In this document: one piece after another, positions 17,265-43,100 of the stretch | Layout of the letters: each line of letters starts with the position of its first letter | How positions within the stretch are numbered: the first letter of the stretch is position 1 | DNA from: Elsinoe ampelina | Taxonomy: Eukaryota | DNA length: 64,000 nucleotides | Assembly: GCA_010093995.1 (NCBI GenBank) | Contig: ML992507.1 | Location: forward strand, 488,673-552,672 | Reading direction: 5' to 3' | Position numbers and translations under genes: made by a program | The notes under the pieces: model-generated | Told to the model about the DNA's origin: nothing | The model's database searches: none | The model's input: only the letters and a program-made list of their open reading frames with translations

Positions 17265-18296
17265 CACTCCTTTACTAAGTAGCTATAACTCTATAATAGC
17301 TAGTTAGTAGACTACTAACTCGAGGGATAGCTATTATAAGAAGGCCTTATACCTCCTAGGTAGTAATAATTTAGTAAATCTATTAGCTAGTGTATCTACT
17401 AATAGTATCTATGTGACTAAGATAGGACTAGATAGATCTCTAGCTTGATTAATCTCTTGTTTTAGCTAATAATAATAAATATTAACATAGCGAAGGCGTG
17501 TAGTTAGCTTCTTAATTAGAGTAGTAATAAGACTAATAGTTTACTAATTATTATACTAAATACTAACATGTTTAAGAGGATAGATAAAGGCTATTAGCCT
17601 CCTCTACTATATAGCTTGCTTAGTGGTCTCTATAAGAGCAAGTAGCTTAGCCTCTATAGTTAATATTATAACTATTAGTTGCTTTATAGCCTTCTAGTTA
17701 ATTAATCCTTAAAACATCTTAAAGAGATAGCCTTAAAGGCTCTTCCTTGTTAGGTAGCTACTAAAGCTAGCATCTAATAAAGCTTAGAAGATTAGTAGTA
17801 GTATTAAGCTATTAAAGGTAAGAGCTAAATTCTTAGTTTTATAGAGATATTAGATTACTCTATTTNNNNNNNNNNNNNNNNNNNNNNNNNNNNNNNNNNN
17901 NNNNNNNNNNNNNNNNNNNNNNNNNNNNNNNNNNNNNNNNNNNNNNNNNNNNNNNNNNNNNNNNNNNNNNNNNNNNNNNNNNNNNNNNNNNNNNNNNNNN
18001 NNNNNNNNNNNNNNNNNNNNNNNNNNNNNNNNNNNNNNNNNNNNNNNNNNNNNNNNNNNNNNNNNNNNNNNNNNNTACTAGGCTTAGCTAAGCTAGAGTC
18101 TCTTTATTAGTCTATCCCTTATAACTTAGATAGCTAGAAACTAGCTTAGATCTCTAAGCACCTTTATCTTATATTTAGTATAGAGGGCTATAATAATAGT
18201 ATTAGCTTTCTCCTCGTTACGAAAGTCCTAAGCGTAGAGAGTTAGAATATTAGGTTTCTCCGTATTAAACTAAGTTTAACTATATTAGGTCGCTAT

Positions 18297-18362
18297 AAAC
18301 GCACCGCACCTACCTAAATTTAGTTAAACGCACCGTACCTACCTAATTTTAGTTAAACGCAC
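18297..18362. repeat. Subterminal 29-bp tandem repeat (aaacgcaccgcacctacctaaatttagtt, about 2.3 copies)
   Basis: Directly visible about 80 bp inside the left TIR. Confidence 0.8.
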
Positions 18363-20599
18363 TATACGTGCCTTAGATTAGATAAATACTCTACTTGCCG
18401 CGACTAGAATAGATATAGAAATTAACAAGCATCTTCCGGAGAGAGCTCTCTAAGCTAGTGTAATTATAGATCTTATCTACTAGATAGAGAGGAAGTATAT
18501 ACTCTATATTATTAAAGCTTAGTATAGAAGCGCTTTTGCTATAATAGGAAAGTAGACATTATACGCCTTGTTCTCTAGCTTGTAACATAAAACCCTAAAC
18601 TAATATATACTTATTCTAACTCTATTTTATTGTCTCTACTTAGTTGTCTATTAAGGTGTTAGATGTCTCTAAAGACAAGCACTTTCGCGTAACTATATAG
18701 CTAGCAACAAAGGTTAATACTAACGAAAAGCGCCTCTATTGCCCTATAGCCTATAAGTTCTGCTATCTAGTAGCCTATATTGTTAATAATATAAAATAAG
18801 CTTATAGAGGGGCATTTATAACTTAGGCTTATAGATATAAGGAAGCTTTTCCTAAGAAGGACTTAATTATTATAGCTAAGTATAGTTATAACATCGAGTA
18901 TAAATACCTATAGACCTATTCTAGTACTTAGAAGTCGTTAGTAACGTAGGAAGAGAATAATAATAGAAGCTAGATATACTACGTTAATAGTGGCTATAGT
19001 AGCGAGGCTATAGCCTATTCTAAGAAGATTAACACTAATATAGACAGGTACGGGAAATGTAATAGATATTTAGTTTAGGCTAAGCTAATTCCTCGTCTAC
19101 TAACACGGAATAGTATACCTACTAGAAGGATAATTCTAGGGCTATAAAAGACTACCTAGAAAAGTAAGGTCCGACGAATATTAGTATAGTGTCTAAGTAG
19201 CCCTAGAGATAGTACTAAGGACATAGCAGTCTAAACGACAGCTTAAAGGCAGTTATAGCGGAGAAGTAAATACTCTTTCTAGGAAGTTTAAGATTTACCT
19301 TAACTATCTATCTACAAGGTCATCGGCAAGGAAGTAATTAGTAATAATAAGAGGCTCCTTCTACTTCTTACTCTTCTTCTCTGCCTTGCCGAGCTTAATA
19401 CTAGCATAGCTATAGACACTAGCGAAGATAGAGGTAGTACGCTTCTTACCTTACTAGCTCTCGGCGCTAGTTATAGTAGTCGTCGGAGAGGTAATAGAGG
19501 TAGTGTCTAGGTTAAGATCGCGGCACTTTATTGCTATATGTTAAAGATAAGGTTACCTCGACGCGTACTAAGCTTCTAGTAATAACTCGCAGTTGTAGCC
19601 GTATATAAGCAACAGTAGTTATAGAGGGAGCAGTAGTAGTAGCTTCGGTTACGGTGTACCTTACTATAGTAGAGAGCAAGGAGAAAGGTATAGAGAAGGA
19701 AGGGAGTATCTCTCTCTCGGAGGTAGGTATAATAACACTTTTTCCTACTATATCCCGCCGCTCTACTATTACTACTACTAAGTAGTAGTTGTAGTAATAG
19801 CGCGTGTAGGATAATCTAGTATATAATCTTATAGACAGAATTTGTCGTATATATATTATACACTAATAATCTTACGAGGAAATACTTACAACCTACGTAG
19901 ATATAGAGGAGACTTTAAAGGACAAGGAAGAGGCTACTCGCTATACTAAAGGGTAACTTCTTCTTCGACTCGTTTTCTGCGTATAGTATATATATAAAGA
20001 TTAATAAGAATGTTCCCTAGCGAGTCTTCTAAGCTAGTGTTATTATAGATCTTATCCGTTAGATAGAAAGGAATAAGTCCTTAGCAACTACTCTAGTAGT
20101 ATCGAGTAGATCTCTATGATGTAATAGCGAATAGAGTAAAGCGCTATTATCTATATCGGAGTCTTATTAGTAAACTTATTATAGAGAATAAACTTTCCTC
20201 TTAGACTGCCGACTCTATTAGTAAAACTAACCTAAAGATAACTTACTAACCTAAGCCTTTTACCACTATTGCTAAATACTTAGGGTATGTCTTAAGTATC
20301 TTAAAGACTAACTTCTATAACGCCTTACTATAATTTCCTAAGCTATTGTAATTAGTAAAGAAATAGACTAACTCTTTAGCGTAAAAACTATATAAGGCAC
20401 CTTAGGCTACGAACTCTATATAGTTTAGAGACTAACCTAATAATACACAGGTGTAAACTAACTAGTTAGAGTAATACCTACGGAAGTTATTACAACTCGC
20501 CTACCTAATATAGTTTAGTAGTTAACCTAAGTATACCTAAGCGTTAGGCCGTCGACGTAAGAGACGATTATTCTAGCTACGAAAGGAGTACTCTAGCTT

Positions 20600-23500
20600 C
20601 GTTAATACCTACTACGCTTACTAACTATGCCTAGGGATCTTAACCTCTCTTGTTTCGAAGCCTTAGCTAAGTAGAGCTATTTAGACTCCTATAACTTATT
20701 CTATAGCATATTATATATGTTAAAGTCGGCTATGTTATTAATGTATATCCGGCTATATAGCCTTATTTTATCTACCGGCACGACGTAGATACTATAGTAG
20801 ATTTACGAGGTAGAGTAGACACGTCTACTAGTAAGAGTGTTCCGTCTAGCTCGCGCGCGTCGATTTGTCTAAGGCTTAATTAGTGTTATGCTATGCTCTC
20901 GATTAGCTACTCTATTTAGCTAAGTAGGCTAATATAGATCTACTAGCGCTCCCGTGTAGTATAGGCGTTAACGCTAGCCTAATCTACTAGACTAGAAGCT
21001 ATTCTCTATAGTTATTATAAACATAATACGAGCTAGTAACTTACCTTATAGGCTATTAGGTAATGCTCCGTTAGTGCCTTTATCGTTCGTTATCTATTCT
21101 TATACCTAGAGCTAGTCTTGCCTCTTATTGCTACGTATCCTCTACTATTTAGTTATACACTAGATAAAGTCTTATTTGTCCGTATTAGGATTATTAGGAT
21201 TATAGTTAGATAGTTTTCTATACTTTAAAGAATAGTAGAACTTAACGTAGAGGTTACTTACCTAGGAAGAATCTAGTTTAAGTCTATCGGGATCTAGTTC
21301 GGCGTTAAACTAATTAGAGTATTTAGTTCTCGAGTTAGAGCCTATATCGGCTATACCTTAACGAGCCTCGCGGACAAATACCGCTATTACTTGCTATAGT
21401 AATAGCCTAGGTAGCATATTAATAAGCGCCTCTAGTTCTCTTACTATACGCTATATAGCCCCCCCCTTAGCGCTAGGCTAGCCGAACTAAGAAGTAACGT
21501 TTACTATATCGCTTACGCCGACTAGCGTACTCTAGATCTTAATTAGTTTAGTAGCTAATAGCCTAACTAACTTCGAGGGGTCGTTAAATACTACTAACAT
21601 GTTTACTAGTTTAGTGTTATAAGTAGTAACCTAGTCTTTCTATCTAGCCTTCTTATTCGTGAGTTTAAAGGCGTCCTTAATAAAGCATATATAATTATAC
21701 TCTAAATAATTAGAATCGAGGCTAGTAACTACTTCGAAATTATAGATAGCCTTTAAAAAATATATTATTAAGTACTATTTCGGAAAGTTAAAGTTACTCT
21801 CTTCTTTCCTATTACTATAATAGGCCTAGAAGGTTTCTTTATACTTGTTTATCCTAAAGAGCGCAAGGTTAATATACTAGAGTATATCGTCGTTATAGGT
21901 CTTATAGTTTACTAGTAATATAAAGTCAACTAGTGCGCGTATAAACTTAATAGCTTAAGGCGCCTTAACCTTCTTAAGTAGTAGTATAAATACTAGAAGC
22001 ATCTAGCGTATAATACTCTTCTACTCTTAACCTGTCTATTGCTTAATAGCTAAGTAGTGCAAGAAGTATTAGATGCCGGGAAACACTAGTATACTATCGA
22101 AACGCTTGTTAATAATATTAAGTATAATCTTCTTTGCCGAGCGCTAGTGGCCTATTCGCTATATAGTCTCTCTAGCCTTTATATACCGCAGTAATCTCTA
22201 TATAGGTATTAAATCCTAGAGCAATTTTTAAGTCTAGCGTAAGATGTGTATTAAAACGCCTTTAAGAAGTTAGTATAGAATATCTAGTACTATTACGTAG
22301 TAAATATTAGTATACGGAAGATCCTATATAAAGTAACTAACCGTATAAACCTAAGAGCTTATATCTATCTTCTTGCCCTGCTACTAACTCTCGTATACTT
22401 CTCTCTATAAGCGCTATTATCGCTACGTAGAGTAGTAAGTTCGGAATAGTATAGTAACTACTAGGTTCTCCCTTTCGTCCTTGCTAATTAGGCAACTTAT
22501 ATAATAATATAGTGACTTTACACTAGTTATAGTAACCTATTTAGCGTAATTCGTAGGTATAGCAGCAAGTATAGAGAAGTACCTCTGCCTCTTTCTATCT
22601 ATATAGAAGATTGTTTTACTCTCTCTCGAGTAGTAATTAATAATAGTATTAAAGATTTTCTTTATATAAGCGTAGTAGGTCTTCTCCTTAACGACATTGC
22701 TACTATCTTTAATAATAGAAAGTAAGCTAATTAGTAACTACCCCGGCCGGTAGTTGCTATTACGTACTTCTACCTTTAGGTTACCTAATAATAGATAGAT
22801 AGCGTATACTATAAGATCTCCTTAATAGTTTATTACCTAGGTCTAATTACTCGCGACGATTAATAGAATAATAGTAGCCCCTAGTATTCTAAGTCGCTTT
22901 TGTATGTTCTACTACTAGTTGCTACTTACTATTTTAGTGTATACTTATTATAGTAGCTTACTCTCGATAGCTTCTATAAAGACTCTATATAGGCTATAGT
23001 CTATATCTACTACGAAACTATAATAGCTAAGTAAGAAGCGTATCGCTATAAGAATATCTAGATGCTAGAACGTATGTCTTTTAGGCCTACAATTAGTGTT
23101 TAGTATAAAGCTCGAGGTCTACTAGCCGTTAATACCCCCGCCCGTATCTAAATTCTCTATCTTCTCTATTAGTTTATTCGTAGTTCGCTAACTAAGGCTC
23201 TCTACTAGAGGTTATATACGTAGGCCTTTAAGTAATTACGTAATTATAGCTCTACTAAGTTTCTCCTTTATAAGCTACTAGGTAAGACCTACGTCTATAC
23301 CGCTAATAAAGGCTTCCTTTAGTTAAGTCTTGCCTAACTAATTGTAATTTAGTTCATCGTCGGTGTTAGTGTATATATTATAGACTTAGGGAGATCTAGA
23401 CAAGATTAGTCGACGCGAACTAAGGATAAACTATATCTATAACTAACTCTTCGCTGCCGGCCGGTATACTAGTAGCTATCTCGAACATAGTATAATCGGA

Positions 23501-23737
23501 TATAGCTCTACTAGATAAGGACAACCTCCTAGTACTCCGCCCTATAGATATACTACTAGTTGTGCTTACTATAATTACTTACTCTTCCTCGTGCGTGCCT
23601 TCTATTGTAACCTCGTCTATACTCTCCTCTTTCTCGTGTACGTCGCTATTAAGCCTACTATTACTATTACTGTCTGTTTTACGTGCTAGAGGTTAAGGGT
23701 TAAGGTCGGTAAAGAGACTAAGAGAATTATCCGCTAT
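20600..23737 (-). pseudogene. Plavaka-family transposase relic
   Basis: De-RIP: PGATIIPLIVASDQTQ...YAIYLSLGNL (about 22780-22885), CADGKRQRCFPVLAAMPADYAEQ (about 22540-22610), DLPYADIHHVMVPDILHQLLKG (about 22260-22325), IDKRFDSVPVFPGIRHF, QWTGQEQK, VRALVDF, FNFPKWH, KDAFKLTNKK. Ends approximate. Confidence 0.88.
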
Positions 23738-23885
23738 GCTATACTATATAGTAGGCAAAGGGGGAAGGATACTCTCTACCGGCTATAGACTTTCGTTTCT
23801 ACCCTAGTGTTTAGTTCAATTCTTAATTACTATTATTCGTAGCGGAGTAAAGTAGACTAGCGAGTTATTCGGCGTTAGCGGACTA
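23373..23885. repeat. Internal direct repeat A, copy 1 (transposase 5' end plus upstream region)
   Basis: Near-identical to 30726-31238 (offset 7353). Confidence 0.9.
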
Positions 23886-24349
23886 TATTATATATTACTA
23901 GTAATACTACCTCGTTAGCCTTTATTAGATAGTAAGCGCTCTCTCTTATTAAACAAGCAGGAATTGTTACTAGCGTTGTCTCTACGTAGATATCTATTGC
24001 TACGTTACTCTAGTAAGACTTACGCTATATTACTTATTAGTAGCTCTCTTCTCTAGTAATATAGTAGATGTTAGATAAGGCCTCTACTAGATTATATAAT
24101 CTTCCTACAGGCCGAGCATTTACTAATTCGCCTTAGTATATCTATATTTGTCGCTTAAGATCTAAATTTGTAGTTAGAGTTAGCTAGCTAAATTTTAGCG
24201 ATAGTAGAAAGTAGGAAACGTTTAGATACTATATTATATTAGGTAACCTAAAAGATAGTTTAACATATATAGAGAACTAAATTAGTCCGCTAAACTAAAG
24301 AATTGCATTTTTAGGTGATATAGTTAGACTATTATCTAGTAATCTTAAT

Positions 24350-27300
24350 TATTATCTATAACAATTGTGTTCTTCTTCGCCGTAGCTTATTAAAGTTTCT
24401 AGATCTTCGCCCTCTACTTCTCTATTTCCTCGTAGATAACCTTCTATATTATTAATAGCCTACTCTATCTACTATTAAGCTATTCTAGAGGCCTATAGAA
24501 CGGAGCTATTAGCTTTATTATAAACGCCTCTATGTAGTTAGCTTTCTAAGACTTAATGTTCCTATAGACCTAAGCTAGACACTAAAGGACGAATCGTAAC
24601 ACTAACGCTATATCGAGCAAGATTATAGTATCGAAGTAGTTTAGATTAAGACTAGTCTTAATAGCTCTACCCTAGGCAATTAAGATCCTTAAGCCTTCCG
24701 GCCTATTAGGTTTAATAAATGTATCGTTAGATATAGCTACGTTAACAATGTCTATATAGGTAGGTATAGATATTATTCTATAGTAGATAATAACTACATT
24801 AGCATTCTTATCGATCCCGATTGCTTTGCTGTCTAGGTGCTTCTCGAGCCATTTTAGATACTATGCCCTTATTAGTAATAACCTAAATAGACTAAATAGA
24901 CTAAACTAACTATTGTAGCAACTACTAGTACTAATAGTGTAAACGCATAGATAATTACTTACCTCTTTAGCTCCTTCGAATAGGAGACGTTCTACTTAAT
25001 AATCTCGGAAATAACACTATAAAGGACCTTTATCTAAGGACTAGCGTAGATCTTGTCTATATGCTACTATAGCGCTATCTCCGAGGAGTTATATATAATT
25101 TCGTAGACAAACTTAATAGTAAAGTCGCCGAACTCTTCTATAACTATAGGATCGTCCTAGAATATATCTATAAGAGTAAGAAACATAGAGAAAAGTAGTA
25201 GCGGCGTAACTAGGCTTAGTATTTGCTCCTTAGTCTTCTTATTAAGGATCGTCTCTAATGTTACTTCGGGCTTATCGGATTTATCCTTTTACCTATCGAT
25301 TATCTCTTATATACTCTTATCTATATCCCGTTCGATCTTCTTCTATATATTTATAAGACTATAAAGATACTTATCCTTAATAGTAATCTCTAGATCGAAG
25401 GTAGAATATAGTAGAGCTCTAATAGCTAGTAGACTAGGAGTAGTATTAAAAGGTTTCTAGATGTAGTCTATATTTATCTTAATAAGAATATTCGTAAGGA
25501 TAGTACTCTATTTACTAACCGTTGCTATAATCTCTTCTATAAACTATATACTTCTCTTTTTGTTAAACTTACTAGAGTTGTTATTCGCCTTATACTATTT
25601 ATTAATTACAAAGGCATAGTCTAATACTATTTAGAAGTTAAGCTTATTAGTAATAGCTTATTAAGTCTTATCTAGTGTTATCTTTAGTGTTACTTAACAT
25701 TTATTATTCTTAGCCTTAGTTAGCTTCTACTTAGATTTATAGATATAGTTCTTGTTAAATTCTCCTATTCTACTTCTATTCGTATTAAGCTTTTCTAATC
25801 TAAAGTTCTTATACATAGTCGCTATTAAGAACGCTACTACGTTTAAGCACTTAACAAATAGCGTCCTACTTATACCTAGTATAAAAGGCCTCTCTAGTAG
25901 CATTCCTAAATAACACTAGGTCTGCGTCTTCTAGCTAGTGACCTAATAGAACTTATTAAAGATGATAGTAGCCTAGTTTATAGGCGTAGACCCTAGCTTT
26001 CTCTCTTGTCCCTTAGGAACAAAGTTCTAATCCTTGGCGTTTATGTTGTTCTTACTAAGGAAGCGGTAGATTATAGTATTACGAGTAGTAAAGAAGAATT
26101 AATTATTTATCTATAAGGTCTAGGGGTATTACTTACGTATATCGACTAGTTATAAGACTATAATAGTGTTAATAGGCTTACTAGACTTATCTATTAGCTA
26201 AGACTCTTATTAGTAGTAGCCTATAGGTAGATTCTCTTTGCAAATTAAAGTGTCTATATTATATACGTCGCTATACTTATATTCTTATATAGCTTAGAAT
26301 ATTCTCCCCTAGCATAGGACAACCTTTATATTAGGTATAAACTTCCGTATCTCCTACGCCTATTGTTTTATTATATTTAATCTACTAACAATTAGATTAT
26401 AGCTAATAGTATCTATAGAAGCAATATCTAGCTATAGCTCGTTAACTAGTATCTTTACCTTCTAGTACTTGCTCTACTTATCCTTAGGTATAGTAGTATA
26501 GTTAGTATCCTAAATAACCTTTTTGTTTAAGTTCCGAATTAGTAAGAGAAAAAAGAGTTTTATTAGAGTCTTCCTAAATTCTATCTTATATACGAACATA
26601 AATACTAGGTAGCCTTCGAGGTATTTCTTAAGTGTAATAAGCGCTAAGTATATCTATGCTACCTCGACTAGATACTTCTTGTTCTAACTAAAACACTATA
26701 CACTAGCGTTCGGTAAGTAGATGTCTTTCTTAAAGCCTATAAAGTTATAGACTCTCTCCTAGAACTCTTTAGACTAGTAATCGATTCTAGTGCCTATAGG
26801 GATAAAGCTTTAGTTAGCTAGATTATTACTAGTTTACTCGTCGTCGTTGTCGTTTATAGTATAAAGTTTAATAAAGTCTAAGCTACTAAGAGTCTTATTA
26901 AATATACAAGTTATAAGCGCTAGAATAGGTATAGATAGCGTCTTAGAGACTAACGAAATATAGTACCTTACTTGCTTCTTACTAGGTATAATTATAAAGG
27001 GATACTAATTACTATCTCGGCATTACTTATAGTATTTGTCTTCTATTACCCGAGTAGAACGATAGTCGATAGTAGTATTATTCTTGTTAGGTAGTAGAGG
27101 GCTAGGTTGCTTCTTAGGGGTAGATTTACGTAGTAGTAGGCGCTTAGCTAGAGATAGAGGGGCTAGAGGTTCCTCTTTCTCTTCCTTCTAGACTAGAGTC
27201 GATAGCTTCTAACTATTATAATACTAAAGAGAGTTAACTAAGTATGTTAGTATATACCTAAGTCAAACTAAGTATTAAACTTATAAAGTACTTCTTTAGG

Positions 27301-28326
27301 GAGCTTCTTAACTAGATTCGTGCTAGGCGTAAGATAGACGAAAATTATATTACTACCTTTAACTAGGGAGTTAATATAGTTAATTATAGCGGCACGTAGG
27401 TTATAGTTGTCTAAGATAGATAGGATATTATATAGCTCTATATAATCTATCTATATAAGGATAATGTTATTACTAACTAACTTCTTCTCCTTTAGGAATA
27501 GCCTAATATTATTAAGGCTATATACGTTCGAATTATAATCCCCTAGATATAACCTTAAAATTCTTAGACTAAACGCCTATAGACGACATAAATATCCTTT
27601 CTTTATAATTATGCCTAGGCTAATGTCTAATTACTTAACAATTATAAAGTTAATAATAGTTTTGTCGATAATACTCTAGACTAGACGAGATATATCCTCT
27701 AGTATTTGCTACTAACGTATAGGCTAACTAGTGCGGTGATTAATATCTATACCTACGAGTCCGCTACTAAGTATAGAAGTCTCTAATCTTTTAGAGAGTC
27801 TACTATCGGACTAGGTAGTAGAGGGGCGCTTTCTAATATGCTTCTTAGGATAAGCCTTCTTATCTACTTTAGTCTAATTCTTCTTATTCCTAAGCTCTTA
27901 CGCCTTAATAGTAAGGACGAAATCTTTAATAACATTATAACTAGATATATTATTATAGTTTTTAACGTTCCTCTTAAACTAGTCTTAGTCTTAATAGTGT
28001 AGTCTTTAAAAGAAGATCTTCGTATAGTTATCCTAAGAGTATTATAGAGAAGTTTTAATATTGTCTATAATCGTAGTTATATTAACGTTACTATCCTAAG
28101 GTTCCTTATATTTAAGTCCTAGAACTATATAGACATTCTTATATTCTTCCTACGCTCTTACATATACGGCGGCGTACTAGTCGTTGTCCTAGTTAAAGAA
28201 TTCAAGGAAGAATCTCTTAATCTTAAGGTTTTTATCGAGCTATACTTAAATTTCTATAGGAGGTCTTTCGTAGAGTAGAATGTTATTAGTGGCTATACTA
28301 GCGCCGTTAGGCTAATTCTTAGACAT
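24350..28326 (-). pseudogene. SNF2-family (SF2) ATPase/helicase-like gene relic, cargo of the giant element
   Basis: De-RIP motifs in canonical order: I FAHEMGFGKT (about 26567-26596), Ia LIVS..VVKQWAQEIRKFVPDMKVVL (about 26320-26400), II WATIIFDEFHQV (about 25940-25978), III LGMSGTPF (about 25855-25885), V ILIAQGGAIKTGLNLNCFDTVILLD and VI QCLARVHR (about 24560-24690). Ends approximate. Confidence 0.85.
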
Positions 28327-29280
28327 ATTACGTACGTCCGTAAGCTTAGTATATACTATAAATAAAGCTTAGAATAATATCTAGTAAACAGGTTAAGTAG
28401 GTATAGTAGATATTAAAGAAAAGATCTCGTAAAGGTATTACGTATTTATAAGTTTAGAAGAATTAAGAAGAGGATTTATTAACGTAGTAGGTCTATATAC
28501 TTTGTAATATATGCCTAACTAAGACTTAACTAAAGAGGAGATATTTAAGTAAAGAGCGCTTAAAAGAGAGGTTAAAGAGGTTAAAGAAATACTAGAGAGC
28601 TACATAAGTTATTTATTTATATATAAGAGAGTATAAACAAAGGTAAACTAAAGCAATTAAGGAGAGAAGTAACCTAAATTTAGTCGACTTAGGTCGGGCC
28701 CCGAACTAAGCACGTAGTAGTATACTAGATATAGTATATATATAATAGTAAATTACTTAGTTTAGACACTAAACTAAGAGTAACTATAGTCTATGTACTT
28801 AGTTACCTTTTATTTTACATGCCGTATGTACTAAGGATACTATTATTGTATTTAGGGTAGATCTTAAGGGATAATAGTCTAATAAATAGAGGGAATATAG
28901 TAGTAGTTAACATAAAATAATTAAACAATATTTTAATAGCGAAACTAGTATTCGTATACGAAGGACAATAGTAATAGAACATAAATAGAAGGTAGTTAGT
29001 AGCCTATAGCGGTATAAAGGGCATAGTATATATAGCGTATAGTATAGCTTATAGATACTAGTAAAGGAACAAAGAAAGTAATATACTACTATTTAATTAT
29101 CTAGACTTTACAATTGCCGTATATAGAATTAAGTAGTAGAGTAGAGTAAAGGCTATATATTCCGCGGAATAGGCAGTTAATAGTATATTCTACATAATTA
29201 TAAATACGCTTTATTCCTCGCCTAGCCCTACTAGGAAGGCAATAGCGAGAGAGGACGCTACTAGTATAGCTTTACCTACG

Positions 29281-30025
29281 ACGCTCTCTATAGTAAGCTA
29301 CTGTCTAGTAGGAGGTAGTAGATATATCTTTACCCGCGATATTCCTCTATCTCTTTCTCTTTGTTATACCGGTTGTTCCTTTACAATTCTCCCCTTAACA
29401 TCCTTATACTATAAGGCAGGTAATCCCTAGTAGACACTAGCTTCTTTACCCTCTTTACGTATGCTAGAACCCCTAGTAGCGCTATCTATAAGATCGAGAG
29501 ATACTCCGCGATAGATTCGCTTAGTCGTAGCTACTAGGTAGAGACAGTAGCTAGTCCTACTAATAATACGTAGCTAGTATAAAGAAAGCTATAGAGAGTA
29601 GTAGTAGCAGAAGAGAGAGAAAGAGGTATCGGAGTCTCCTTATACACTCTTAAGCCTATAGTAGCGTAGTAGGCAAGATAGAGAGGTATACTATAATAGA
29701 TTTGCTCCGGCGTAACTACTAGGTACTAGCGGTAGTTAATTCTATAAACACAATATAGCCGGTATAGAGAATACTATTAGAAGTAGTAGCGACAGCGATA
29801 TAGGAGTAAATGTTAGAGTCGCTATTATATATATAGTAATAGATAATTATAGTGTACTAGGCGGGGGATCCGCTATAATAGATAGCTAGCTATTATTAAG
29901 GTCGAATAGAGAGAAGAGAAAAGGTTATACTAGAGACGCTAACGCCTATATTTAGGTCGGTATAAGTAGAGGGTGCAAACTAAGGCGTTATAGTAAATCG
30001 TATCTATAATATAGTTATGTCGCTA
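29281..30025. repeat. Internal direct repeat B, copy 1 (contains a small Pro-rich minus-strand ORF relic)
   Basis: Near-identical to 36454-37198 (offset 7173). Confidence 0.9.
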
Positions 30026-30725: not shown

Positions 30726-31238
30726 ATATATTATAGACTTAGGGAGATCTAGATAAGATTAGTTAACGCGAACTAAGAATAAACTATATCTATTACTAAC
30801 TCCTCGCTACTAGCTAGTATACTAGTTACTATCTCGAACATAGTACGATCGGATATAGCTCTACTAAATAAGGACAACCTCCTAGCACTCTGCCCTATAG
30901 ACATGCCGCTAGTTATACTTGCTGTAATTACTTACTCTTCCTCGTGCGTGCCTTCTATTATAACCTTATCTATGCTCTTCTCTTCCTCGTGTACGTCGCT
31001 ATCGAGCCTACTATTACTATTACTATCTATTCTACGTGCTAGAGGTCGAGGGTTAAGGTTAGTAAAGAGACTAAAAGGATTATCTACTATACTATACTAT
31101 ATAGTAGGCAAAGGGGGAAGGACACTCTACGCTAGCTATAGGCTATTATTTCTACCTCGTTACTTAGTTTAGTTCTTATTTACTATAATTCGTAGTAGAG
31201 CTAATAGGACTAAGCTATTATATAGCATCGGCGGACTA
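30726..31238. repeat. Internal direct repeat A, copy 2 (truncated copy of the transposase 5' end)
   Basis: Matches 23373-23885; similarity stops abruptly at 30726. Confidence 0.9.
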
Positions 31239-31739
31239 AAGCTAAAATTGTATCTACGCTATAGTACTAGACACGTTAAGACAGAGTTTACTCTAATATA
31301 TCTAAGCGACAGAGTTTGTCGGCCGTCCCTTACTTAAGAACAATATTAAATGCTATACTTAATTAGCTATTGTCGCGCTATTGTCCTTAGTAGAGGCTTT
31401 TATAGCAATTATAAAACAGAGAGTACCGCGTAGGTATAATAATTTTAGCTAGTAAACGATTTATAGCTCTTGCTATCTTATGTCTTAACTTGTCGCTAGT
31501 ATTATAATAAGTTAGTTATAAATAGCCTCTACGAAAAAATAGTAATAGCGATATATAAAGACGCCTTAGCTATATAACATTAGGTCGTTTATGCCTATAG
31601 TTAATCTGTTAGGGGTGGTTAATTAGTTTACTAAACTAAAACTAGCACTTTTTAGGTAAAAATTGCAAGCGTTCCCTTAACCGATCTTAACAAGGATAAA
31701 CTAATAATTTGCTATTACTCCTCTATTAGTTTAAACAAC

Positions 31740-34700
31740 TATGCTTTTAGTTTGTCCGCTTCGCTATATTGTCTTATATAACTTTCTATATCATCGTTAG
31801 TGTATCGTAGCTATAGTTAACTTACTTCTTTAGCTAATAGGATAGTATAGTTAGCTTAAGTGTAAACGCTGTTATTATATCTACGCTAGCGAATATTATA
31901 TTCTCTAAGGCACTATCGGAAGCCTACTATAATAATTAGATCTATATACTAACTTTATGTTAAGCAAAGTTATACTATTAAGGCGGAAGTACTAGTACTC
32001 TACTCGTTATAGAACTATATACTATTCCTAGTTATAAACTAACTAGCGTAGCCTTCTCGAAGTAAGTTTACTTTAATATAGCTACCCTAATAATGCCTAC
32101 GTAGCTTACTATAGACTTCTCTCTATAATTAATAATAACAACTTTAGTGCCCTTACTAATCCTAATAGCTTAGCTATTCGGAATTCTCTTAAGTTATTAT
32201 AGATATAGCTCTCTTATTAGTAATAACCGAACTAGACTAACTAAGTCGAACTAACTACTATAGCTACTACTAGCGCTATAGAGTTATACGTACAAATAAT
32301 CCCTCGCTGCCTCTTAGTCTTCTAACTATAGGCTTTCTATTCTATAATCTCGAGGATAATAACATAAAGGCCCTATATTTCTAATCTAGCGTAGCGCTAG
32401 CTATATACTTATCTACTACTTCGGCTCGGGGTATAAAGTCTAAGGAGTGTCTATAGCCCCTACTATAATGTCGGTCGATGTTATTACTCTTCCTATACTA
32501 GCGGGGCGGTAGAGTAAATAAAGTAAGCTTACGACAATATCTAGCATAATTACCTCTAGGTTCCTTTTGCTTGTCGAATATAGATATTATCCCGTACTAC
32601 TCTCTCCTATATAGCATCTTTATAATTGTAGTTAAGGTATACTCCCCTATACGCGAAGCGATTTATATATATAGTACTACTAAAGAAATAAGATATCTAT
32701 CCTTAATTAAAACTTTAAAGTCCTAGTTAGAAATATCTTAAACCTAATAAGATATAAAAGTAGATATAGCTGCTAGATGTTTTATAATTAGGTTAAGATA
32801 CATGTCGAGAGGAATAAATAGAAGTCTAGCTATCTATATAGGGACTAATACGAAGATTTCGAACTAGAAACGAGAAGTAACTATTATATTTACAAAAAGG
32901 AGACTGTAATAGGCTTTAACTATTCTTATATTACCTTCGTATAGGCGGAGAGCTACCTCTTATTATATTATATAGCAATATTAAGTTAAATCGTGTCTAG
33001 TTTATCCTCTCTTATTCTTTGCGATAGATACGTCTTTACCGCCTATAGATAGAGACTAGCTCTACTATATCGAAGCTACCTTTGTTAAGTAGTAGGCATC
33101 TAATCTCTTTCTCTTAGTGTAATTAACCTTATATTAAATATTAAGCTTAATACTAAACCTACATATACGGTCGGTAGAGCTATACTAATACCGAGTAGTA
33201 ATTACCTAACAAGGAGAGGTATAAGATAGCTAGGCATTATAGCGTTCCCTTAAAGGACTTATCTACCCTAATATAAAATAAGTTTATCTCTAGTTTTAGG
33301 CCAACTAAACTAACTTAAGTTTATACTTAGTTAGGAGGCGCGACCTGACTTAAAGCGTCTCTACTATTTATTAGGAGGTAGTAGCTAGAACTAATAATAG
33401 TCGGCGGGAATTCTTTATTAACTTCTAAGTATACTACGTATAAACCTCGCTAGTATACGAGAGTAAAGCCTAATAACTGTATTAGTAGTAACGCCTACGC
33501 GCTTCTTTATAGCACTATACTATTCTTATTTAATTTAGTTAACTCTAAGTTCGGTATAGAACTAAAACTTATACTATTACTTCTACTATAATAGGGGACA
33601 AGATTCTATCCTACTAACTTGTTTTACTTATTATTAAACGCCCTAGTCTGTTATATCTATAGTAGTATCGCTTCGTTTCTATTGTTAATAATATTAAGAA
33701 CATATTACTTTTTTAATGCTAATGTTAATCTCGTGTTAGTAGAAGTAAGTCGTTATCTTCTCGGACTTGCTCTCTTTACTCTAATACGTTATAGCGTGCT
33801 AGGCAGGCTATAGAAAGTCACTAGTAACAAAGTAAAACTTAGAAGAGGTATTAGAGAGCTCCGAGAGATCGCGTTTATCTAGATAGATAGCCGGCCTTAG
33901 GTGTATAGTAGCTTATATAATATTCTTTAAGCTATTAAAGCAGTAGAAATATAGATAGCGCCTCGGCGGCATATGCTATAGTCTAAATAGGCTATATTCT
34001 TCTAGCGGGGAAGAAGGAGCTATATTCTCCTAAAACTATATAAAGTAAGACTATACTCTAAACTAAGTCGCTAGGTCGGTTAGAATCCGTCTAGCTATAG
34101 TTATAGGACTATCGAGCAAGTTTACTTCTAATAACAATAACGGAAATTCTAGAATTTATAGAAGCTATAGCCTCTTAGGGGTAGAACGAGCTAAATAAAA
34201 CTTTATTAGTTAAGAACTAAACAGTTTTATAAATAACGTAATAGCAAATAAAATATAGTAGTATTACCGCTCTTGCCTTTAGCGGTTTAGTCGCTATCGC
34301 AGGTATTAAACGTTCTATATTATAATATTCTCTTTCTACTAATCTCCTTTACGCTTCTTATTAGTGTTAATATCTATAAAGCAAAGCTTCTTAGGAGTAA
34401 GAAACACTTCTAAGTTCTCTTCTATAGTAGCCTTAGCTATAGGAAGTAGTCGCTAGCTACTATAATATCGATAAGAGTTGTCTATAAGTGTTAGTATATA
34501 TAGATAAATAGAGAAGAGGTAAACTTACTTCGTATAAAGTCGGAAAGATCTTTAATAGATACTATAGAAGGAGTAAGATAGAGAAAGATCTTATAGGCAC
34601 TAGAGATAAGGGTCGTAATATACTTAGTAATAGCAGCGTCTAGATCGAAAGAGTCTTTAATAGTAAAGACTTATACGGAGTTATATATGTTAAGCTAGTA

Positions 34701-35600
34701 GAGTTAGAGGTAATTACCTCTAATGTTAAGGATCTACCTAAGCTTACTAATGTAGTAATTAACGTAACGATTCTTGTCCTTGCTAGTACTAGGCTTTCTT
34801 AAGTTATAGACGCGAATATTCTTTCTTAATGTTAGATACAAGATAGTGTCCGCTTCGATAACCTCTATAATCTAGATCGTGGCAAATTTAATGTCGATCT
34901 AGACACAATTAGACGCTAGCCCCTAGTTAAAGCTAAACATTCTATAACGAGGCTATATATATAAATCTAATCTCTTATCGCCTATCTTTATACGAGTTAT
35001 ATGTCTCTCCGAGGATAGTGTTCTTACTTAGGAGAGCGTTAGTGTCTATATAGACGAGGTAGCTAAAGAATATAAACTCTAGGTACCTTCTTTGCCTAGC
35101 GATATTGTCTTTTCCCTTTTAACCGACGGGAGATTTGCCCTTATTAATTATATAGTATTTCGGAATAATCGCTATATAGCTTTTATCTTGTCGATATTAA
35201 CTATAGTCTATAAGTTCTCCTTAAACTAGTCTAGATCTTTCCGATCTAGTTAGTCGACAAAGAGCTAGAAATCGTTAGGCGTGCTATTTAGCAGCCTAGT
35301 TTTAATTTTAAAGCGTGCTTTAAGCACCTTAGGATTACGTAACTTACTTCTATCTTGTTTCTCAATTTTAATATTAGATTCTATAAAGACTTTTAAGATT
35401 GTTTCCTTTATTCTCGCAAACGCGGTAGAGTATTACTAGTTGTCTTAATTAAAGAAGAATTAGATAGATTTCTTACTAACATTATTATTGCGAAGTATAT
35501 TCTTAATAAGAGCTAGTATAAGGTTATTAAGTAGAATCTTTTCTATAGGTTTAGTAGCGACCTTTAGCTTCTTCGTCTTCGGCGGTATAGTGCTATTATA
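31740..35600 (-). pseudogene. Diverged paralogue of the cargo SNF2 gene with degenerate ATPase motifs
   Basis: Shares N-terminal FFNQDN.QY and DLDWFKEN (copy 1: DQDWFKRN) and C-terminal DSVTLLDM (copy 1: DTVILLDM). Also shares nucleotide similarity (24880-24920 versus 32220-32270). No GKT or DExH found at the aligned positions. Confidence 0.65.
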
Positions 35601-36453
35601 TATATTTAATAAGTATAAGAATATCTACTAGTAAAGGCGTTATATAAGGCAAGTAAGGTTAGAGGAGTCGAGATTATATAGCTAGGAACTAAGCGTAGTA
35701 AGTTAAGCGCTATAGAGTAAACAGCAGTAATTATAAATACCTACTACCTAGTATAATATTAAAATACTACGCGGAAAGTAGGTAGTAACTTCTTAAATAT
35801 AATAAAATTTGTATTTAAGATAGTATACTAAAGTAAGTAGTACACTTGTAACTAAGATCTAGTTTAGGCCTCGACCTAAAAGTAAACTAGGTTAACTAAG
35901 TCTATGTTTCGTATGTACTAATAGTAACACGTAATAATTACTAATATTAGATTAATACTAGAACTAAAAGTAAATAAGTTAGTTTACTACTAACAAATAT
36001 TATAGAGTATAAATTAGGTAAGCAAACAAAACGTAGCTATTAGAGAATATTATAAGTGCTAATTATTATAGAAAATTAGTGTCGAAGTAATTAACTATAC
36101 TAAACGCTCGTATATTAGTGCTATATACGAAGTTATATATGCTCTAAACAGCTAGCGGACTATTTAATAAAGAGTATTATCGTATAAAGTAACAACCTTA
36201 ATATCTTTATAGTAGATAGGAGACAAGACGAATAACAAGGAATAAAGAAAGATATATAGTATACTTATACGTATTAGACAAGGAGATTTTGTTTACTAGT
36301 TAGAGAAGGGGAATTAAAGCGATAGGTATATAATCTACGTAGAAAGAAGTATATCGCTAACGCGAGAAAGTTATAATAAAGCGCTATTAATAATAAAACC
36401 CCGCTATAAAAGTAATTATAAAAGAGAATACTACTAATATAGCTCCGCCTATA

Positions 36454-37198
36454 ACGCCCTCTATAGTAAGCTACTGTCTAGTAGGAGGTAGTAGACGTAT
36501 CTTTGCCTACGATATACCTCTATCTCTTCCTCTTTGTTATACTAGTTATTCCTCTATAATTATCCCCTCGATATTCTTATACTATAAGGTAGGTAATCCC
36601 TAGTAGACGCTAGCTTCTCTACTCTCTTTATATACGCTAGAACCCCTAGTAGCGCTATCTATAAGATCGGGAGATACTCCGTAATAGATTTGCTTAGTCG
36701 TAGCTACTAGGTAGAGATAGTAGCTAATTCTACTAATAATACATAGCTAGTGTAAAGGAAGCTATAGAGGGCAGTAGTAGCGGGGAGAGAGAAAGAGGTA
36801 TCGGAGTCTCCTTATACACTCTTAAGCCTATAGCGGCGTAGTAAGTAAGATAGAGAGGTATACTATAATAGATTTACTCCGGCGTAACTACTAGGTACTA
36901 GTAGTAGTTAATCCTATAAATATAACATAGCTAGTGTAGAGAATACTATTAGAAGTAGTAGTAATAGCAAGGCAGGAGTAAATGTTAGAGTCGCTATAGT
37001 ATATATAACAATTGATAATTGTAGTATACTAGGCGCGGGAATCTACTATAATAGATAGCTAGCTATTATTAAGGTTGGATAGAGAGGAGAGAAAAGGTTA
37101 TACTAGGGACGCTAACGCCTACGTTTAGGTCGGTGTAAGTAGAGAGTGCAAACTAAGACGTTATTACAAATTATATTTATAATATAGTTATATCGCTA
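36454..37198. repeat. Internal direct repeat B, copy 2
   Basis: Matches 29281-30025. Confidence 0.9.
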
Positions 37199-40100
37199 CG
37201 TAATAAGTATATAATAAAACCGAGAGGAGATAAAGTTTAGCGCGTTAAACTTTATAGTTCTACGAGTGTTAGTTTAGGCTAACTAATTATAACTAAGCAC
37301 AATTCTAGTATGTCTCTCTCGTAAGTAAACTAAGATCTAAGGCTTATCTATCGCAAGTAACACTTACACCGAATTGCTACCTATACCGCTACCCTTTTAC
37401 TCCTACCTCTCTTTTCCCCTTCGTAGCTATACCTATATCTACTTCTTATTAACTAGTAATATACTTAATCGAAGCTATTAAGTAAGCCCTTGCTCTTAAT
37501 AATAAAGGCTATAGAGACTTATATAGTCTCTTAGAGAATATTATAATAGGTAAAGGCATAGTTAGAAGAATATTTAGGTCAATTTCTAATAGGAGAAGAT
37601 TAGAGAAGAAGGTGCTTCTAGCGGCACTAGATAGTAATAACATTCGGTACACGTTTCGGCGTACAATAGAGCTCTTAGAGAGTAGCGATAGTTAAGCTGC
37701 CTTCCGTACTCTTATCTATAAGATAAGTACTAATTTTAGACGTTAGTAGGTATAGTTACACTTAAGATTATATAAGCCTAGAGAAGCGTAGAATAGTGCT
37801 AATACGCTTACCTCGAACAAATCCTTAGATTGCTAATTATAATTATAAGCGCCTTTACTCTTTAATCGACTAGACGATATACTATTAGTAGTTTATAAGG
37901 ATAGAGAGATACGTTCTATCTACTTAATTAGAGATCTCCTACTTATATGTTATAAAGCTATAACTACTATGTCTAAGAAGAATATAGATATTAAGTTTAA
38001 TTAGCTAAGAGTAATATTAATTATAATAGACTACTATATATATAATAAGTAAAGCAATGTTATAGGTTAGAAGGACAATAGAACGCTATATTTCGCTATA
38101 ATAGAGAATACTATCTAGTTTAAGGCTGTTATCTTATCTAAGATATTATATAGTTTACCTCTTTATATCCTAATAAGGCAACGAGATTAAGGAAAGTATC
38201 TAGCCGAAGCAAGTATAAAGGAGAATAGTCCGGTAGTAGACTAAGTCGAACTAAAAAGTAGTAGGGTAATCTACGCTAAGCCGTACCTACTACTAAACTC
38301 TAGAGTTTTAGTTTATTTACTATGCTTTATCCTTCCTTACCTTTTAACTAAATCGCTCTTTAGAATTACTTATCTATCCTTCTACTATTAATCTGTTAGG
38401 TCTATTAGTATCTTTTAGCTAGGCTTCTAAGTATAGATATTAATTGTACCGACCTTGTTTCTCTAGCGGCTAACATCTAGACTATAGGATTAAGTATATA
38501 GGCTCCTCTTATCTGTTTAGGTGTTAAAGTATAGTCTTCTAATAGTCTCCCTAACTAGCTAGAGGCTTAAATTAGAAGCTCTCTACTATATACGTACGAA
38601 GAAGAGTATAATTACGTTAGTAGCTAGCAAAAGCGACATAGGACCTAGTAGCCTAAATAGCTTAATAGATAGTAACTCCTAGAGGAAGACATTGCACTTA
38701 TTTAGTAGGAAGTAGGCTAATTACAATTAATGGCGGAGGAGAATATAAGCTTAATCGAACAACTCTAGCGAGAGAATAATATACTTAGAGAGTATATTAG
38801 TAAAGCTTTTTACGCGTTTAGTATCGCCTCTACGGACCTTACTAGTAGAGTGTTAAGGGGCTTATTTAGATTAAATAAGGGTATATAACGTTATACTAAT
38901 AGTGCTACTCTACTATTACTATATATAGTTACTAATAGCTAATTAACGCTCGCCCTCTATTACGACATAATTAGTAGAAGATAAGCTACTCTATCTAGCG
39001 TGTCTTATTCGGACACCCTAGACAGCGAGATAGTAAGCGATTAATACTTTTAGCACTTAGAAGATATACTACTTAGCAAAGGGGGGACTACTAATGTAAT
39101 TAATAAGGGAGCTACTATATAAATTGTACTACCTGTCTATATATATAATAGCTAGTTCCTATAGTCTTTCGAATCAGTATATAATTGCTTAGTCTAAGTT
39201 TAATCTATAATTTCTCTCTATATATTTCTACTCTAATTGTTACTTAACCTAATAACAAATACTATATTTAGTTTAAGTATTTAGTCCGAGTAAGTTTAAG
39301 TAGCTTTCTTTTTTAGTTTAGCTTCTAGTAATTAGTACTCTACGAGTTAGACCTAGCTATAAGTCTAATTTAATACCCTTACTAGTTAAGATTACTTTAA
39401 GGTATAGGTAGATATAACTAATTCTAATTAGAAGAAAGTTACGCACTCTAAACACCTAACTAAGCTATTATCTAACTTAAACTAACGCTAAATTACTATA
39501 ACACATACAAGATAACTATCTATCCCCCTTATAGTATATATTATTCCGGCCTGCCTTGCTAACTCTCTTATACCTATATACCTCTTTATTAGAACTATTG
39601 CGAACTAAGATATCTTAGGCACGTTAGTACCTACATAGCTTAGACTATAAGACCGATAAGTATTCCGAAGATAACAATTTAGGTTATTTTAACTAGGATA
39701 AAGCAGAGTAAGGCTTTAGCATTAAGGGAGACTAAGCTAACTATATAGGCTATAAATATAATATCGAAGATAAAGGAGAAGGCATAAATTAGACATTGCT
39801 ACTCTTAATCCGAGTTTAAGAGAGCTATAACCCGACAAGAATAGCCTAACGTTAGCCTCTATACTAGTTAAGATAGTAAAGCGGAGGTAATAGAACGTAC
39901 TAAACTAGTATCTCGACATTTTCGAGGCGGTGCGTAATAATCTATATATAAGTATAGCTATCGGAGTAGATTATAATACAATGTTACTAACATTAGACAA
40001 TTAATAGCTACTCCTATAAATTATATAGTACTAGCGCTCGGTCCGTAACTAGCTACTAGTACTTTATCTATAGAGGACTATAGGTAAATACTCTTCCGCG

Positions 40101-43100
40101 GTTATAGCTAGTAAGGTAGGTTACGTAGCTAAAGCTAATTACTTATTAATATACGTATAGCTCCGAGAGGCGCTCTACTATAGTCGTAATAACATTACAC
40201 GAATAGTAAGTAAGATACTCTACTACGAATAGCTAGCTAAGAGGCTAGAGAATAGCGAGCTACTAAATTAGGTACGTAGGCTACTAGAGGAAAGAAAGTA
40301 CTAATACAAGGACGGCGATTTAGTACGCGCTAGATATACTTATTAATTAATTACTTATATATAGCAGCGTAAATGCTTTAGGAGTCCTTTAATATATAAA
40401 GCCTTCTAAGTAGCCTTTATCGGACGTGTAGGCTTAGCTATAATAGCTAGTACTTACTATTACTTTAATAAACTAATACTCTTTCTTATTTCCTCTCTCC
40501 TAGCAACGATTTATATACTCTTAGTTAAGTAAGTAGACGGGGTTAAGTCCTACTTACCTAAGGGAATACTAGTATTTAAACGTATAGAACCTTTAGAACT
40601 CGATTATGTCTAACTAAGTATTTAGAATAACTTCCTAGCGTAGATTAGCCCGAGATAGGTTCTTATCCTTCGTTAGCTAAAACTTAGCTTTACTAAGTGC
40701 GTTAAGAGGAATAGACTTACTATCGTAGTAGTAGTATTAAACATATCTCTTTACGCTAACACTATAGAGGGACTATTAGATAGAGAAAATACAAGGGAAA
40801 GGTACATATATACCTTCTTATTTTAGTTTAGCCTACCTAACTTTAAACTAACTTATAGAGAAGTTAGGTATATAATAACGGGCCTAACAGCGGGGGTAAT
40901 AGCTATTATATAGCACCGGTACGAAATGCTTCTACTAAGTACCTTTTAAGAGGTAAGCTTAATTCTTCTATCGGCTTCTTAAGTTTGATACTAATAGATC
41001 GAAAAGAGTATCTAATTAAGGCTAAACGCTCTATTACGGTGTATTAAGGTACTACTTAGTTCGCGTATAGGAGCGAAGTACTAAATTGCTCTATAGCGAC
41101 TTCTACGATAGAAGCACAGCCGGCGTAGATGCCTAATATAGATAGTAACCTTGTCGTAACTTTAACTACTACTAAACTAAGTTAGGTCGTAGTTAGTACA
41201 TACAAGGATTAATAGACTTAATAGCAATATTCACCTAGGCTACTCGATTATACGCGTACTATACTATCCTAAGACGGACAACTTAATAGCAATTTACTAG
41301 CGGTTAAGGCGTAGTAGAAGGATTTCTTAGGTACATAGACGTAGATAAACTTTTTATCCTTTATATATAAGAAGTTTAGAGGTCTACTACGTAAACTAGT
41401 CTTATAGTACCGAATCGGCCTAAAGTATAGTAGTAGTATCTTAGACATTAAGGAGAATAGACATCCGCTAGATAGAGATACTTTTATAGAACTAAGGGAT
41501 AAGGATATAGAATTACAAGAAGATAGTATATATATCGTTATTAAGAGTAGTATTAGGTAGAATATAAAGCAATATATATATTCTAGCGACCTTATATAAT
41601 TTTCTAGACGTAGTAGATAAATTACAAGGTCTATATAATATATAGATATATATAATATATACTACGAGGTAAGCTACCTAATAGAATGTTTCTATAATCG
41701 ATATTGTCGAGCTTATAGAGTAGACACGAACTAATTACTTCGCGAACTAAGAAACGCTTAAACTAAGATAAGAGATACACGTAGTATACTATCTACTATT
41801 AGGCCGTCTCTGTTTGCTACGCATTAAGGGTTTTTGGATTTCTACGGGGAAAAACTATATTACTTCTAAGTAGGACCTAGAGGTAACTAGGGAATTATAT
41901 TAAACTAAGTTAAACTAAGTTAGTTACTTAGAAGTAGTCTAACGTAGCTCCCTAGCGTTAGGGATTTCGTAACGCTTGTACTTCTTAAGATATATAATAG
42001 TAATGTTATCTATAAAGAAGAAGATTATTACTTTAGGTATTATCTAGAGGTATAGAGCCTTAGGGGCTTAGGTAAATCTAATACCCTTTAGAGTAGTAGT
42101 GAATTTAGTATACTAGAGAGCTAGAGCTTATTTAAGACTATATAAGGCCTTATTAAGCAAAAGGATTGTATCTAATAGAGCAATGCTAGGATAGTCCTTT
42201 ATAAGATCCTCTATAACTAGCTTAAATCTAGTAGAGAGAGTGTAGTAGGTAGTCTTATTAATAGGACTATTAATATAGGCATTAATAACATCTATTTAGA
42301 TAGCCTCTATATCTTTATAAGCAAGTAATACTATAAGCATTCTAAAGATCTTAGCTGCTAGAGTTACTATATAAGTCTTAGATTCTGTTAATTAGAGATT
42401 ACCTCTTATATAGACTTTTACTTTATACTTTATAACCTCTCCTTTGTTATTAACTTTATAGGTAAATATCTATATTAAAGAGACAGGCTTGCTAGTAGCT
42501 TAAGCTACTAGTATAATAGTCTATATGTGTTTTAAGTATAAAGTGAGTAATTTAACCTTTATAGCCTCTTAAAATTGCTTCTTATAAGAATAAGCCTTAA
42601 GTTCTCTAATATTAGCTAGTAGTAGTAGAAGATTGTCCCTTAATTCTAGCTTATACTAAGTTAGTGTTATTAATAGATAAGCATTAAAGGCTTAGTAATA
42701 TCTAGGAGCCTTATTAATTTATACAAGAGTAGTAATATAAACTTACCTTCTTAGTTTTCTTATTCTTCTTATTATAAGAATATATTTAGGAAGAAGGTTA
42801 GCTAACCTTATAGCAATTCTTTAAGGGGGTTACTTAGGCTAAGCTTTAACTACCCCTTTAGTCTAAACTTCTATCTTATCTCCTTTAGCTTTATCTCCTC
42901 CTAGTAGTAGAGAAGATAGCTATACTACTATAGATAGTAGTAAGGCTAGAGCATTAAAGAACTATTTATTTAGTAAAGATTCCTAGATCTAAGCTAGGTT
43001 TAGATCTAGAATAGCCTTATCTAATTAGTCTAATAGAGGTAGTAACTAATCTAGTATAACAGAGTAACCCTTATCTAGCTACTAAGATAAACTTAGCCCT

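Follow-up and report, generated by a model that had tools for sequence, protein, structure and literature searches.

A 23.8-kb Plavaka-type transposon, degraded by repeat-induced point mutation, inserted in a copia retrotransposon

A 64,000-nucleotide stretch of the Elsinoe ampelina genome (assembly GCA_010093995.1, contig ML992507.1, positions 488,673 to 552,672; hereafter the window, numbered from its first letter) contains a DNA element of 23.76 kb (23.8 kb) at 18215–41974, bounded by an imperfect terminal inverted repeat and a CT/CT target-site duplication. The element interrupts the reverse-transcriptase gene of a Ty1/copia retrotransposon and carries a decayed Plavaka transposase gene. 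Taken as a whole, these observations are best explained by a large Plavaka-type transposon that inserted into the copia as one piece, was killed by repeat-induced point mutation (RIP), and whose interior is part of the mobile unit of its family; we put the probability of this reading at roughly 0.7. The ends of the element are delimited by the following features.

18213–18214, no strand: target-site duplication CT, left copy, read directly
18215–18244, plus strand: left terminal inverted repeat, 5'-CGTTACGAAAGTCC..., from the inverted-repeat pair
18296–18386, plus strand: left subterminal tandem repeat, a 29-nt unit repeated 3.1 times, starting 81 nt inside the left end
41900–41922, plus strand: right subterminal repeat TTAAACTAAG, a 10-nt unit repeated 2.3 times, 52 nt inside the right end
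41945–41974, minus strand: right terminal inverted repeat, pairing with the left arm
41975–41976, no strand: target-site duplication CT, right copy, read directly

The two arms of the inverted repeat, 18215–18244 and 41945–41974, are 30 nt long and complementary at 23 of 30 positions (77%), with the first 10 nt, CGTTACGAAA, matching exactly; the element begins with CGTTACGAAA and ends with TTTCGTAACG, that is, 5'-CGT..ACG-3'. The control consisted of 2,000,000 random pairs of positions from the same AT-rich block. An exact terminal run of at least 10 nt occurred in 26 of them, the same run flanked by identical dinucleotides in 1, and complementarity of 23/30 in 0. Chance is excluded for the ends because the reverse transcriptase independently fixes the site to within one codon, a continuity that also backs a 2-bp target duplication seen in one copy. 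The four exact copies of TTAAACTAAG that the 64-kb window contains (18265, 41758, 41900, and 41910) are all no more than 220 nt from one of the two ends, and the 29-nt unit is confined to the left end. A transition-tolerant 20-mer scan of the window gave 0-mismatch matches at the two true ends alone and no internal copy of the terminal sequence. An earlier, sequence-only reading of this DNA had proposed exact boundaries, imperfect inverted repeats of about 30 bp, a CT duplication, and subterminal repeats, and the arm alignment, the controls, and the tandem-repeat scans uphold each of these. The left arm of the element also contains a 90-nt direct repeat (18405–18494 and 19984–20073; 80% identity), and one joint among the short contigs considered below skips the intervening 1,588 nt.

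The insertion site can be read through the protein that it interrupts. We aligned the two copia flanks separately to a homologous copia polyprotein, P0159, and the alignments support the empty site at the protein level. On the minus strand, the upstream frame ...FFFIDNITIIYLKKY ends at 41978, the junction codon composed of 41977, 18214, and 18213 reads AAG (K), and the downstream frame from 18212 reads EKANTIIIALYTKYKIKVLRDLSXFLAI... In P0159 numbering, the upstream piece runs to residue 1192, the junction lysine takes position 1193, and the alignment resumes in the downstream piece at 1194. Because these residues are contiguous, removing 18215–41974 together with one CT restores the protein without the loss or gain of a single residue. 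The spacing from YVDD to FLG is 28 residues both in the rejoined copia and in P0159, and this exact agreement confirms the in-frame rejoining that had been claimed from the sequence. The match to the RVT_2 reverse-transcriptase profile covers positions 12–173 of 244 and so ends at the break; part of the reverse transcriptase downstream of it is hidden by a run of Ns at 17866–18075.

Between the ends lies a transposase gene that is recognizable along its length and broken throughout.

20611–23310, minus strand: Plavaka transposase pseudogene, about 900 codons in a single frame with 67–71 in-frame stops and no frameshift, from tblastn and HMMER
22243–23094, minus strand: Pfam PF18759 Plavaka domain, E = 1.7e-22, 80.5 bits against a cut-off of 26.3, profile positions 38–321 of 325

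Plavaka was the sole Pfam family found when 18215–24214 was scanned with stops read as X. The gene is situated 2.4 kb from the left end and oriented towards it. By tblastn, its unbroken frame (23310–20611) aligns with residues 1–893 of the 905 in relative P0005 and residues 19–954 of the 963 in P0003; no second Plavaka-like region was found in the window by the same means. HMMER retrieved 722 relatives (best E = 3e-90; 15 at E ≤ 1e-30), and the full HMMER search was needed, as a word-indexed protein search with the RIP-read transposase gave no match. Among named relatives, those matching best are hypothetical proteins from two Dothideomycetes, Polychaeton citri and Aureobasidium pullulans. The Pfam match and these relatives identify the element as a Plavaka-type terminal-inverted-repeat transposon, in agreement with the assignment to the Plavaka group that had been made from the letters, and the assignment is further supported by the 2-bp duplication, which agrees with that of published Plavaka elements in the accessible parts of their descriptions.

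Where the frame is interrupted, the stops align to W, Q, or R in 30/67 cases against P0005, 34/71 against P0003, and 28/46 against P0002, as expected of C-to-T and G-to-A changes. Conserved segments are eroded in kind: ASDKT, DLLHQL, and FHAITHY of P0005 correspond to ASN*T, DILY*L, and *YLIIYF in the RIP-mutated gene, and the DDE triad and the C(2)C and H(3-4)H motifs are recognizable by position and not intact. With 67–71 stops placed in its transposase by RIP, the copy is dead: It can neither move nor make protein. The longest stop-free minus-strand frame in the transposase region spans 66 aa, so that the claim that RIP hides the element from open-reading-frame finders proved right; it is this degradation that causes them to miss it.

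The mutational signature extends over the whole nest. An AT-rich block from 17.0 to 46.2 kb has a GC fraction of ~0.32, against ~0.52 in the surrounding DNA of the window. Across 17001–46153, TpA/ApT is 1.8–2.1 vs. 0.5–0.8 in the flanks, and (CpA+TpG)/(ApC+GpT) is 0.21–0.50 vs. 1.2–1.3. By the usual thresholds for these indices, the block values indicate RIP over the entire 17.0–46.2 kb, which marks the host as a filamentous ascomycete. What surrounds the Plavaka element within this block is a minus-strand Ty1/copia retrotransposon with a pair of long terminal repeats (LTRs), a 5-bp duplication, and an integrase ahead of the RVT_2 reverse transcriptase.

17001–17005, no strand: copia 5-bp target duplication ACAAG, left copy; the pentamer precedes TGTTG at 17006
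17006–17264, minus strand: copia 3' LTR, 89% identity to 45901–46153, ends read
17265–18212, minus strand: copia interior on the downstream side of the break (remaining reverse transcriptase and RNase H, N run included), from the P0159 match
41996–42496, minus strand: copia reverse transcriptase RVT_2, interrupted by the insertion, PF07727, E = 9.1e-8, profile positions 12–173 of 244
43361–43558, minus strand: copia integrase C-terminal SH3-like domain, weak and below the curated cut-off, PF25597, E = 5.5e-5, 23.4 bits vs. 27
45899–46157, minus strand: copia 5' LTR, from the repeat pair, ends read
46158–46162, no strand: copia 5-bp target duplication ACAAG, right copy, read directly

The LTRs appear as a direct repeat, 17008–17260 and 45901–46153, of 89% identity, and their ends were read as a TGTTG start (TATTA in the RIP-changed copy) and a CA end (TA). 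The insert set aside, the copia measures 5,390 bp (5.39 kb) and lies in DNA of normal GC. Its homolog P0159 (1503 aa) matches at E = 2e-29 and is colinear with it: residues 709–852 fall at 43789–43361, 1042–1189 at 42469–41987, and 1327–1492 at 17849–17340. Runs of Ns occupy 14615–14684 and the interval at 17866–18075 already mentioned, the latter removing 210 nt of the reverse transcriptase/RNase H region just past the insertion site. The whole AT-rich block is thus composed of two nested, fully delimited elements. A 12-nt tandem repeat (CTAAACTAGATT, eight copies, 43151–43246) in the copia coding region yields a repeated LVXN peptide in the polyprotein frame. Elsewhere in the window, positions 1–3000 form a second AT-rich block of RIP type (GC 0.31, TpA/ApT 2.2), which resembles neither the Plavaka element nor the copia in any meaningful way, the single match, 70 nt at 70%, being to the copia.

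Most of the element lies upstream of the transposase start and falls into four parts.

23333–30043, no strand: internal unit U1, 6.7 kb, adjoining the start of the transposase gene on its upstream side, no recognizable gene; colinear with U2 above controls
30044–30685, no strand: inter-unit spacer, in which a 100-nt tandem repeat is present 1.9 times at 30153–30346, from repeat scans
30686–37216, no strand: internal unit U2, 6.5 kb, colinear with U1 and a diverged copy of it, from patches matching U1
37217–41944, no strand: right arm, 4.7 kb, no recognizable gene; 0 Pfam families

U2 matches U1 in patches at 30686–31238, 31540–31875, 32061–32409, 34393–34687, 35357–35456, and 36397–37216, at offsets of 7173–7353; the remaining tiles of U1 score at control level against U2. 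The best block is 777 nt long and 87.5% identical, differs almost entirely by transitions, and has a spacing of 7,173 nt. A pair of LTRs was considered for this 777-nt repeat and rejected, the homology being colinear across the whole units: Six or more colinear patches over 6.6 kb indicate duplication rather than an LTR pair. The interior is a diverged tandem duplication of a ~6.6-kb unit.

We asked of short contigs from two DNA runs (X1 and X2) of one sample, probably that of the window itself, how they place on 18076–38075 at a likeness of at least 80%. Matches numbered 13,355 in X1 and 10,107 in X2 and covered 30 of 30 bins, with a summed contig depth—which is no copy number—of 7.8k–12.9k per bin after the first, single listed contigs standing at 150–400. 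Changes in X1 were A>G 331, C>T 420, G>A 434, and T>C 301, with at most 5 of each transversion type, and among the 40 entries listed an alternative letter was carried by 1–22 distinct contigs, alike in the left arm, U1, and U2. These patterns suggest that the contigs represent many RIP-diverged copies of the whole stretch and that the long interior belongs to a multicopy family; even cover and transition-only variants favor an interior that belongs to the family unit rather than nesting confined to this copy. This copy is genuinely 23.76 kb long, and its family probably has the same length.

A course of events compatible with these features would begin with a live DDE-type transposase that bound the inverted repeats and subterminal motifs and excised the element, which would have been reinserted through a 2-bp staggered cut. 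The element entered the reverse-transcriptase coding region of the copia as one piece, duplicating the dinucleotide CT, and RIP afterwards drove the whole nest at 17.0–46.2 kb to ~32% GC. Under this scheme, the 18.7 kb upstream of the transposase (the two units, the spacer, and the 4.7-kb right arm) would be part of the mobile unit of the family and not a product of later nesting.

Relatives of the transposase in 80 metagenome loci served as a comparison set. No terminal-looking match to CGTTACGAAA, exact or with 1 mismatch, was found in the 80 loci, and pairwise comparison of loci for element edges gave only ~3-kb blocks around genes. Locus L002, whose transposase shares 48% identity with that of the window, has a 13-nt motif in five copies upstream of the gene and inverted copies downstream, ~4.6 kb apart; despite these inverted subterminal motifs, no clean terminus could be aligned there. 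Two more distant loci, L006 and L007 (transposases 32–33% identical to that of the window), place the gene within long stretches holding other genes. In L006, a 10-nt motif, AGAATGCGAC, and its complement form arrays at 70–195 and 18125–19340, ~18–19 kb apart, on either side of the Plavaka gene. Between the arrays lie genes for an SNF2-like helicase and for a zinc-knuckle SF1 helicase of 1311 residues (AAA_11/AAA_12/zf-CCHC). The SF1 helicase stands beside the transposase in both loci with 74% conservation (L006 13064–16996; L007 5812–9570), and other neighbor genes recur in L005, L009, L011, and L029. From these conserved neighbors, multigene Plavaka units probably exist, L006 being a candidate unit. 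When the L006 open reading frames were compared with the window, the transposase alone matched: The helicase neighbors of L006 and L007 have no counterpart in the window element. Around a more distant Plavaka gene, locus L058 shows a 28-nt inverted repeat (89%) starting CATC, at 6985–7012 and 12318–12345, 5.4 kb apart; it resembles the CATCA terminus reported for PlavakaB in the accessible part of its description (see below), and no clear 2-bp duplication was seen.

Several observations weigh against a single large Plavaka unit. Pfam scans of ~2000-residue frames of 24000–41974 gave 0 families. The copia RVT_2 domain had escaped hmmscan in an X-laden frame of 1407 residues, yet a 250-residue piece cut from that frame gave it at E = 9e-8. 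Long RIP-read frames thus produce false negatives, and we rescanned with short pieces; 126 of them (60 + 66) of ~300 residues over 23311–41974 again returned 0 families. Six-frame pieces of the nontransposase DNA had 0 tblastn matches in the 80 related loci, where the transposase control matched in 80/80. The contig runs, coming from one sample that is probably the source of the window, are not independent support; four contig joints skip 7.18–7.37 kb, as single-unit copies or chimeric mapping would; and loose contig ends at 18215 are absent from the 12 entries listed of 649. Only one copy was seen with both ends. L002, the closest un-mutated relative with both flanks, looks compact, to judge from the ~4.6 kb between its subterminal repeats. 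The CGT..ACG termini, finally, match none of the Plavaka termini given in the accessible parts of the published accounts (TGT..ACA, CATCA..TGATG, and CATAC). The same scans bear on the description of the element as cargo carrying and multigene, for which they gave no support: The transposase is its only detectable gene, and the other 21 kb yielded 0 Pfam families, although RIP may hide genes.

The alternative to which these points lend most weight is that a compact Plavaka of a few kilobases grew to 23.8 kb through later nested, unclassified repeats and local tandem duplication, in which case the size would be uninformative about Plavaka capacity. The lack of a gene in 21 kb, the LTR-like look of a 777-nt direct repeat pair at 7,173-nt spacing, and the compactness of L002 all agree with such growth, and Pfam is insensitive enough here, as the missed RVT_2 illustrates, for nested reverse transcriptases to have been overlooked likewise. 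Against this, the homology of U1 and U2 is colinear at no fewer than six patches over 6.6 kb, well beyond the 777-nt block; the 126 short pieces reveal no reverse transcriptase, integrase, helicase, or second transposase; and summed depth and variant-contig numbers are similar across 18076–38075, which is unexpected for independent repeat families. We consider stepwise growth unlikely on this balance, though it deserves serious weight. We regard it as very improbable that the inverted repeats come from a different element, or from two separate elements whose outer ends moved the intervening DNA as a macrotransposon, with the Plavaka gene as a passenger. The differing termini (with respect to all those in the accessible parts of the Plavaka literature) and the single copy seen would fit it; however, no transposase other than Plavaka was found inside the ends, the accessible parts of that literature give Plavaka a duplication of 2 bp, and the transition-tolerant scan disclosed no terminal sequence inside. 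Least credible of all, and scarcely worth entertaining, is a Starship or other giant element driven by a recombinase, which a size above 20 kb in an ascomycete might bring to mind. No tyrosine-recombinase match, DUF3435-type match, or other Starship hallmark appeared in six-frame Pfam scans, whose sensitivity is limited by RIP, and the element has clear inverted repeats, a duplication of 2 bp, and a transposase of the DDE type. The element is thus distinct from tyrosine-recombinase Starships, as the sequence-only reading had held.

A single large Plavaka-type unit, inserted whole and silenced by RIP, remains the reading that we prefer. What the window provides is a base-exact Plavaka insertion in a RIP-active ascomycete, with its ends and 2-bp duplication defined and its empty site confirmed through protein spacing, and it adds a new terminal sequence for Plavaka. 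For annotation, the lesson is that a 29-kb AT-rich "desert" resolves to two nested, delimited elements. Should the family-level reading be true, a Plavaka transposase can move ~24 kb. A bolder extension, possible but on present evidence rather doubtful, is a Dothideomycete lineage of giant ~24-kb Plavaka elements, with tens of copies per genome, that moves ~18 kb of passenger DNA, including the duplicated 6.6-kb module, between CGTTAC termini; if it exists, such a lineage would be the DDE-transposase counterpart of Starships, and the un-mutated relatives L006 and L007 suggest that units of this sort carry helicase genes. The window itself does not demonstrate gene cargo, and it opens no long-standing question.

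Among known systems, CACTA/En-Spm elements of the CMC supergroup encode a DDE transposase that is a distant relative of the one in the window. They also share with the window element subterminal motifs close to either end and a short duplication, and they have a large size range. They differ in that the window element has CGTTA termini and no CACTA, a duplication of 2 bp and not 3 bp, and no detected second (TnpA-like) gene. Starships share its large size in a filamentous ascomycete, but they move by a tyrosine recombinase, whereas the window element has a DDE transposase and inverted repeats, with no cargo demonstrated. A literature search on giant inverted-repeat cargo elements in fungi (including PMC12810828) brought up Starships and CMC elements and no giant Plavaka.

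The nearest comparison is with Plavaka elements themselves, whose ends and duplications had been thought not to be well described; that view is outdated, judging from the accessible parts of three papers (PMC12730594, PMC12581995, and PMC8290104). Complete published elements of the group come mostly from mushrooms, with Tuber in addition. The accessible text of the first (Biology 2025;14:1741, PMC12730594, December 2025) reconstructs families from Agaricomycotina, places Plavaka in a "CMCT" clade, and gives PlavakaA a 2-bp duplication with 5'-TGT..ACA-3' termini and PlavakaB a 2–3 bp duplication with 5'-CATCA..TGATG-3'. Plavaka inverted-repeat motifs have also been characterized in Marasmius, according to the part available of PMC8290104. 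As far as its available description goes, PlavakaA is like the window element in its Plavaka-domain transposase, 2-bp duplication, terminal inverted repeats, and a YGT..ACR-like end; it is unlike it in that the window element has 5'-CGT..ACG-3' and not 5'-TGT..ACA-3'—a difference that RIP, which changes C to T, cannot produce, since it cannot make CGT from TGT—and in that the host is a Dothideomycete-like ascomycete rather than one of the Agaricomycotina from which the published families stem. Plavaka consensus sequences from the white truffle Tuber, an ascomycete, have 2-bp duplications and are easily misclassified by automatic tools, as stated in the available portion of Genome Res 2025;35:2601 (PMC12581995); they share with the window element an ascomycete host, the 2-bp duplication, and inverted repeats, and differ in an inverted-repeat motif that is given there as 5'-CATAC-3'. 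Compared on termini and duplication, the element is a new and apparently unusually large member of the known Plavaka kind, with the new termini 5'-CGT..ACG-3'.

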